NCBI GenBank assembly: GCA_963713615.1
Contig: CAVQMM010000001.1
Coordinates: forward strand, 2,080,001-2,144,000
Source: an uncultured Chlamydiae bacterium
GTDB taxonomy: Bacteria; Chlamydiota; Chlamydiia; Chlamydiales; JAJFMA01
Direction: 5' to 3'
DNA length: 64,000 nt
In this document: positions 27,281 to 27,943 of the stretch, one piece after another
Numbering within the stretch: the first letter of the stretch is position 1
Layout of the letters: each line of letters starts with the position of its first letter
Position numbers and translations under genes: made by a program
Notes under the pieces: model-generated
Told to the model about the DNA's origin: nothing
Database searches by the model: none
The model's input: only the letters and a program-made list of their open reading frames with translations

Positions 27281-27689
27281 AGTGAACTCTCCCTTTAGTT
27301 AATTTCTCTGGTTTTTACTTAGGTTTGACCCTCAGCCCTCTGTGTTTAGCCACTACATAGGCAAAAAAAGCAGCTAAGGCGGAATTTAAATGTTTTACTT
27401 TACCAATAAAAAGAAATGCAACTTTTTTTTGATGCTTCCCCTAGATTCCTTAAAATTGACTCGTCGATATTGCAACAGGCCATGGCATCGCCACAGAGGC
27501 CTCAATCTAACAGGTCTTTTGAGCTTATGTCTCAATGCCTTAGGACCTCACAATCGTATCTCGGCGCGCAGCGCTTTGGAGTGCGACCGCTTTTCGTTCG
27601 CTGCGCGCCGAGATACGATTGTTAGGCTTAGGTTGAGGCCTATGTGGCGATGCCATGGCCTGTTGCAATATCGACCCTTCTACCATAGG

Positions 27690-27930
27690 ATTTTGCAAAC
27701 GATTATCGACGGTAATAGGAAAAGACAAAAAACATTTCTCTAAGGTATCATTTTGGCCGACGAAGGTGTGGCCGTGTGCCCTTAGCGAATGTTTGTTCGC
27801 CTGGCCCGATATGCCGCCTTCGTCGTTTGCATCATCCAATAATTCCGTTCGGGATGGTGCCAATCTTCTGATTGTGGCTCTGTAAGTAGAAGTGGAATTT
27901 GGGTGAAATTTAACGCTCACAAACACTTAA
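27690..27930 (+). ncRNA. putative IS110 bridge RNA (ends approximate)
   Basis: Two stem-loops with internal loops. The first (27758-27825) carries CCCTT and GGCCCGA, matching the target. The second (27841-27899) carries CGGGATG and GTAGA, matching the donor junction. Confidence 0.75.
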
Positions 27931-27943
27931 CAGGGCATTTATC

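Follow-up and report, generated by a model that had tools for sequence, protein, structure and literature searches.

A TC-core IS110 element with a predicted bridge RNA, inserted at a single point of a common palindromic repeat: its likely coordinated retargeting

Background

Does the left end of the IS110-like element in this chlamydial genome encode a bridge RNA, and is it this RNA that brings the element to one particular repeat? The window examined here, a stretch of 64,000 nucleotides, raised the question because a sequence-only reading had described two guide-like loops upstream of a recombinase gene and proposed that they target a repeat family at a TC core. Bridge RNAs that aim IS110 elements at REP repeats are already established for IS621 and for ISPpu10 (10.64898/2026.03.19.712850), as far as the accessible accounts go, and these accounts list crossover points other than that of IS621 for further IS110 members.

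In this report, we describe an IS110-group element whose nine copies all occupy the same position in a palindromic repeat that is abundant in the genome. A predicted bridge RNA in its left end very probably directs the joining of CGGGATG-TC-TACCA with CGACCCT-TC-GGGCC at the TC core. The basis of this reading was seen directly: copies, junctions, conserved RNA stems, guide-to-DNA complementarity, and covariation in relatives. Targeting of repeats is already known; the new content is a clade of TC-core elements and an apparent coordinated retargeting within it. Compared with the sequence-only reading, the analysis adds the handshake bases, the discontiguous right donor guide, the predicted junction promoter, the wide TC-core clade and the coordinated departure of this element from it.

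Results

Recombinase

The element is 1,764 bp long, with positions 27681-27943 as its left end, and encodes a recombinase of 398 aa (Table 1). The open reading frame combines PF01548 (DEDD RuvC-like) with PF02371 (transposase domain with the catalytic serine) and scores 173.7 bits against NF033542, the NCBIfam model of IS110, above the cut-off of 140, which places it in IS110 as proposed. Residues D12, E65, D107, D110 and S320 align with D11, E60, D102, D105 and S241 of IS621, a protein about 70 residues shorter (328 aa). A search of the PDB with the single sequence returned nothing, and a profile search did match; the predicted structure (pLDDT 86) has its best fold matches in 9t56 and 8wt6/8wt9 (ISCro4, IS621), with E about 1e-11 and 16% identity. 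The recombinase had been called divergent, which is apt with respect to IS621 by this structural alignment but not with respect to its own, uncharacterised clade (loci L007-L166, 45-64% identity). The IS110 profile also gave three weak matches elsewhere in the genome (G000:C1 near 374823, 2146012 and 2770394; E 1e-10 to 1e-7), which may mark further IS110 genes or what is left of such genes.

Nine copies at one site of a repeat

The genome holds nine copies, of which seven are uninterrupted; of the other two, one carries an IS66 in the right end and the second an IS21 within the gene. A single synonymous base is the only difference among the nine. All nine read CCCT-TC-[TACC...CGGGATG]-TC-GGGC, in agreement with the proposed TC core and with targeting of a repeat family. 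In the window, the left junction CGACCCT-TC-TACC lies at 27672-84 and the right junction CGGGATG-TC-GGGCC at 29438-51. Other copies had been expected at CCCTTC^GGGCC: eight of the nine are in CGACCCT-TC-GGGCC, and the ninth occupies the variant CTGCCCT-TC-GGGCT, hence GGGCT in place of GGGCC. Occupancy shows no clear preference for the variant (1/15, against 8/264 for the common target). When the nine filled sites are set against the 256 exact empty CGACCCT-TC-GGGCC sites of the genome, there is no target duplication beyond the short core at both ends. Four empty sites within the window had been noted, and all four were found, at 13722, 13919, 52058 and 54879, where 0.03 would be expected and none of 100 shuffles reached four.

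Seven distinct alleles can be told apart among the flanks of the filled sites, one of them belonging to a different repeat variant. In three copies the flanks are identical over at least 73 bp upstream and at least 149 bp downstream; these need not be separate insertions, which makes seven the safer count of independent ones. Judged from these sequences, the element is a real and probably recently active IS110 with a predicted bridge RNA.

Table 1. Coordinates of the features discussed, in positions of the window
Feature	Position	Strand	Details and basis
Host palindromic repeat unit	27463..27675	.	Outer arms 27463-27510 / 27628-27675; second repeat family nested inside
Left target, positions 1-7 (CGACCCT)	27672..27678	+	Sequence, copies
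TC core, left copy	27679..27680	+	Only 2-bp target/donor microhomology; 9/9 copies
Right donor TACCA (positions 10-14) and predicted -10 box TACCAT	27681..27686	+	Predicted circle-junction promoter
Target-binding loop	27758..27825	+	Left guide loop 27773-27784; inner hairpin 27785-27800; right guide GGCCC-GA 27803-27809; handshake UA 27810-27811
Donor-binding loop	27841..27899	+	Left guide CGGGAUG 27850-27856 (then GU); right guide UG 27881-82, 3-nt bulge, GUA-GA 27886-27890; handshake AG 27891-27892
IS110 recombinase, 398 aa	27944..29140	+	Weak helix-hairpin-helix match at residues 196-232
Right end	29141..29444	+	27-nt direct repeat (29220-46, 29307-33); predicted -35 TTGAAA 29424-29; left donor CGGGATG 29438-44
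TC core, right copy, and right target GGGCC (positions 10-14)	29445..29451	+	
Inverted pair of empty target repeats	13722..13929	.	13722-32 (minus), 13919-29 (plus)
Inverted pair of empty target repeats	52058..54889	.	52058-68 (minus), 54879-89 (plus); IS66-family element between

The left end (263 bp) is shorter than the right end (304 bp), the reverse of what is described for the IS110 group as a tendency, not a rule (PMC11208160, accessible text). Since the right ends of most relatives measure only a few tens of bases, the long right end of the element looks secondary. As to the 27-nt direct repeat (29220-29333), a similar sequence is translated in the read-through tails of P0002, P0003, P0009 and P0015, the closest proteins, so this subgroup has the insertion in common.

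No circle junction occurred in the contigs of the 8 public runs examined, out of 20 listed; those contigs contain the element in the same repeat. In two RNA runs, short pieces span the guide region and the gene, contigs of a kind that cannot demonstrate a transcript.

A two-loop RNA in the left end

Every motif named in the sequence-only reading is present where it had been placed. The stem of the target-binding loop is formed by CGACGAAGG (27758-66) and CCTTCGTCG (27817-25), and its loop contains CCCTT (27779-83) and an inner GCGAA/TTCGC hairpin; AATTCC (27841-46) and GGAATT (27894-99) form the stem of the donor-binding loop. When the left end was shuffled 20,000 times with its dinucleotides preserved, the four guide matches never appeared in the observed order; the motifs had been chosen after looking. 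The RNA lies in the left end, upstream of the gene, a trait of the IS110 group and not of IS1111. The claim of a left-end two-loop RNA of IS110 type is backed by covariation in relatives, described below. A minimum-energy fold of the single sequence (z -2.93) recovered the outer stems but closed part of the target loop by alternative pairing; the basis for drawing the loop as open is therefore the alignment. A model built with the element's own sequence (R1) matched only the nine left ends among the 150 of 473 candidates scored; Rfam has no family for the RNA, and its sole match in the window is a tRNA.

The match of the left target guide, GUGCCCUUA, extends over five contiguous bases and one wobble at the common target, and over seven bases at the rare variant. 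The right target guide fits the common target, and GCCCTTCGGGCC, which would fit both target guides in full, occurs nowhere in the genome. Because the left target loop has 12 nt, one more than the 11 of relatives, the register of this guide is provisional.

By analogy with IS621, joining of the two ends in a circle would create a TTGAAA-17 bp-TACCAT promoter that transcribes the bridge RNA; this promoter is predicted from a reading of the sequence, and a scan of the linear DNA was at chance level (6 promoters, with 4.1 ± 2.0 expected). The top strands would then be cut after the C and exchanged. By the same analogy, the U of the target-loop handshake would pair with donor G7 by wobble and its A with T6, while the A of the donor-loop handshake would pair with target T7 and its G with C6. 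Such pairing with the incoming strand would favor insertion over excision. Copy-out, top-strand pathways have been argued for IS110 in two preprints; sequence alone cannot separate these from the Holliday-junction model here.

Relatives form a TC-core clade

A protein search gave 2,516 matches at E 1e-20, and an alignment of 37 proteins led to 160 fetched loci, 146 of them with a near-complete gene. Strict patterns parsed 111 loci (85 distinct RNAs besides that of the element), and the remaining 35 were inspected by eye. About 110 related loci, at 45-60% protein identity, have kept the two-loop RNA. Across the stems of a 51-RNA alignment, 96.8% of cells are paired and 12 of the 20 pairs have two-sided changes, a level reached in none of 500 shuffles; slid stem controls were 36-60% paired. 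Relatives differ in the length of the inner hairpin within the target loop, which was folded for six examples.

Guides and targets were compared in 66 distinct RNAs with both junctions, after exclusion of L021, L163 and loci with incomplete or non-TTC junctions. The left target guide matched at 323 of 462 positions (279 ± 6 when shuffled) and the right one at 266 of 462 (190 ± 9), and none of 5,000 shuffles reached either figure; owing to their kinship, the elements do not count as independent in these statistics. Matching of the right guide drops to background beyond position 14, like the 14-bp window of IS621. Donor guides track their donors as well, GUAGA going with TAC and AUAGA with TAT; these shuffle tests are partly circular, because the junctions were found with those motifs. 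In 80 of 86 RNAs the right donor guide is split, with a bulge of 3-4 nt between UG and GUAGA; in three the two parts are contiguous (UG-GUAGA).

Most relatives have a left junction GGGG-TC-TACCAT, in which the TA[CT]CA common to relatives was itself a pattern anchor of the reading, and a right junction CGGGATG-T-TC-AGGTC. The right junction is T-TC in 97 of 99 (the other two being TTA and TTT); among the 35 loci read by eye it is TTC in 32 and TTA in one, two being without a right end. Empty targets carry a single T (11/11 in genome G001; 5/6 in G002, G003 and G005), from which the donor is CGGGATG-T-TC-TAC and the core TC. As judged from such junctions, the whole clade crosses over at TC and not at the CT of IS621. 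The usual target of relatives, GGGG-TC-A, fits the GGGGWSAS motif given for TIRYT terminal repeats in the accessible text of PMC3733652 and PMC6006769.

One circle-like junction (L163) was set aside because it resembles neighboring left-end sequence. Irregular single-base junctions were seen on the right of L125 and L093 (missing C) and on the left of L087 (extra T); slips of this sort could be a route to the donor of the element studied here.

Relatives were found in one of 400 other genomes of a phylum sample and one of 399 of an order sample (the same genome); there were none in viral contigs and none in plasmids at E 1e-30. A clade-like protein stands, without an ISfinder name, in row 386 of Supplementary Table 1 of Durrant et al. 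'TC core' does not appear in the accessible part of the IS110 and bridge-RNA literature searched, and the clade motifs gave only unrelated matches there, one of them in the readable Durrant supplements. The 32,190 bridge RNAs modeled in 10.64898/2026.10.21.760802 may include this clade.

Choice of site and position of the crossover

How far does the RNA determine the site? It might be a loose address only, with the choice depending strongly on the hairpins of the repeat, namely a 17-nt palindrome 5' of the target and a CCC-TTC-GGG hairpin at the core. The weak match of the left guide and the folding of the repeat into two single-strand hairpins would suit this, as would ISPpu10, for which a 5' target stem-loop acting as a gate and a permissive left guide are reported in the accessible account. 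Sequence alone nevertheless explains the pattern: the 10-mer CCCT-TC-GGGC occurs 281 times in a genome with 516,664 TC dinucleotides, and 272 of these occurrences are in repeats. Moreover, the copies of one relative (L009) landed at varied sites that have only the guide-matched bases in common. Steering by hairpins, which would add to guide-directed joining and not exclude it, is therefore possible, if unlikely.

A cut one base further left would yield identical top-strand products, with T at position 9 as in IS621, a half-matched core (GT/TT) and C at position 10, leaving the 'T9' rule unbroken. The left target guide of the element ends on TT and its left donor guide on G, which fits the coverage of positions 1-9 and 1-8 in IS621. 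Against this, TC is common to target and donor across the clade, the left target guide of relatives ends in TC in 61 of 66, and only the TC register makes both right guides end at position 14; the half-matched position carries the other base in none of the nine copies. We consider the shifted cut very unlikely and retain crossover at TC.

Least credible of all is passive spread of the copies within mobile repeat units or by gene conversion, the RNA being a relic aimed at another repeat: three copies do have long identical flanks and the left guide does fit the rarer variant better, but elements identical bar one synonymous base sit in seven flank alleles, one of them a different repeat variant, and it is the common repeat that agrees with the right guide and with both handshake bases.

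A coordinated departure from the relatives

The element differs from its relatives at several linked positions. Target position 7 is T, against G in 98 of 99 relatives, and the donor T that precedes the core is missing, so that donor position 7 is G and not T; a single-T donor occurs in none of 99 relatives. Without this T, direct pairing of the left donor guide can cover positions 1-7; by bulging out one G it can extend over 1-8. The first handshake base is U in the target loop and A in the donor loop, against A and C, respectively, in 111 of 111 relatives. The distance from the -35 box to the donor is 14, against 13 in 99 of 99, and through this extra base the TTGAAA-17-TACCAT spacer is kept at 17 bp, the spacing of 99 of 99 relatives.

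In the element and the relatives alike, the handshake bases are complementary, by their sequence, to positions 6-7 of the incoming (non-cognate) strand and not of their own. This is the behavior given for IS621, and applied in design as 'no match at position 7', in the accessible parts of PMC11208158, PMC13626964 and 10.1101/2025.05.14.653916. The linked changes fit this published rule, in one lineage.

A quick tree of 57 proteins, a subsample of the loci, nests the element within the clade, where it groups at 99% with L007, L008 and L090, three loci whose guides are of the clade type (the right junction of L007 falls outside its contig); the state of the element is therefore derived. The closest proteins, for example P0002 and P0003, are 61-64% identical and were compared as protein only, apart from their DNA context. 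We infer an ancestor aimed, as its relatives are, at GGGG-TC-A repeats with a donor ...ATG-T-TC. At the present repeat, target T7 would match the old donor T7, and the handshake would be cancelled. In the surviving lineage the donor T would have been lost, the first handshake base of each loop would have changed, and an added A would have brought the promoter spacer back to its length, no order being implied. Guide RNA and the element's own end were thus likely rewritten together to suit the new landing site.

Two other origins were considered and rejected: that relatives acquired their extra T by target duplication, on promoter spacing and handshake fit; and scarring excision, the single-T repeat occurring only once in the genome.

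A wider proposition, to which we give about even credence, is that a widespread clade of TC-core bridge recombinases exists, orthogonal to the CT-core editors, in which this element is a natural retargeting: the change at target position 7 would have forced the loss of the donor T, both handshake swaps and the compensating promoter base. The handshake rule would then constrain IS110 evolution, and the donor guide would tolerate a one-base shift of register.

Comparison with known systems

The element shares with IS621 of E. coli and with ISCro4/IS622 a DEDD and serine recombinase, a left-end two-loop RNA, a 2-bp core and a 14-bp window, as these are described in accessible parts of PMC11208160, PMC11208158, PMC13626964 and 10.1101/2025.05.14.653916. 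Discontiguous right donor guide, handshake bases, junction promoter (predicted in the element) and insertion into palindromic repeats are further likenesses in these sources. In contrast to IS621, target recognition in the element leans more on the right guide, and the RNA sequence is unrelated. Position 9 is C in the element and its clade, whereas the available descriptions give an 'almost invariant' T in IS621 orthologues, contacted in IS621 by G63. The residue aligned with G63 is N68, nearly invariant in the clade, and our guess from the alignment is that N68 accounts for the C.

ISPpu10 of Pseudomonas putida likewise targets hundreds of repeat copies with a permissive left and a strict right guide and a hairpin 5' of the site. 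It differs in its CT core, and in that its structural gate was tested, according to 10.64898/2026.03.19.712850, whereas the hairpins of the element are predicted folds. With the TC-core clade the element shares the RNA scaffold, the core, the donor CGGGATG...TACCA and the predicted promoter.

Bridge editors available today require a CT or GT core. An enzyme that works at TC, for which about 85 natural guide variants were read here, would enlarge the range of possible targets and might not cross-react with those editors, and the element and its relatives offer paired ancestral and derived sets of donor and handshake bases for probing the handshake rule outside IS621. For the host, the repeats would be safe landing sites between genes.

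The host repeat and its neighbors

The target is the terminal hairpin of a palindromic repeat of about 60 bp that mostly occurs in inverted pairs (44 at 196 bp and 25 at 516 bp spacing) and offers about 270 empty target sites genome-wide. In the interrupted unit of the window, the insertion point lies in the right arm, within its terminal hairpin. The repeat was found in none of 60 related genomes, draft assemblies that often drop repeats.

The variant repeat has 14 empty copies, of which 13 form an array directly after the gene of a 150-aa Y1 (HUH) protein, on one side of it only (L003, G000:C1:3243391-3248900); the ninth copy of the element is inserted in this array. The protein is above the IS200 cut-off and below that of RAYT, and its Y---Q--HH motif is that of the IS200-like subclass 1.2 in the accessible text of PMC6006769, where terminal structures are said to be generally absent from this subclass. 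The label RAYT was accordingly dropped for this gene, and the target repeat is called REP-like; RAYT-associated REP and REPIN sequences are palindromes with a GTAG or GGAG foot that flank a RAYT gene, and a GTAG foot was not seen in this repeat. Gene and array may represent an undescribed pairing of repeat and transposase.

Two further Y1 transposases of about 320 aa (L004 and L005) are present, the first with a DnaA-like match at its C-terminus that makes it TIRYT-like; despite this, none of the element's copies in this genome uses a GGGGTCA-type site. Upstream of the element, three long tandem open reading frames (22399-27280, minus strand) appear rich in coiled coils, the two that were scanned having no Pfam match.

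A second repeat family, with a GGAG foot, lies on both sides of a RAYT gene (NF047646 above cut-off; L006, G000:C1:3256275-3257580) and is often nested within inverted pairs of the first, for example at 27546-27626 of the window. IS66- and IS1634-family elements also occur within repeat units (52058-54889 of the window; L184, G000:C1:2331281-2333779): among 12 long units, nine contain IS66 genes and two an IS1634 gene.
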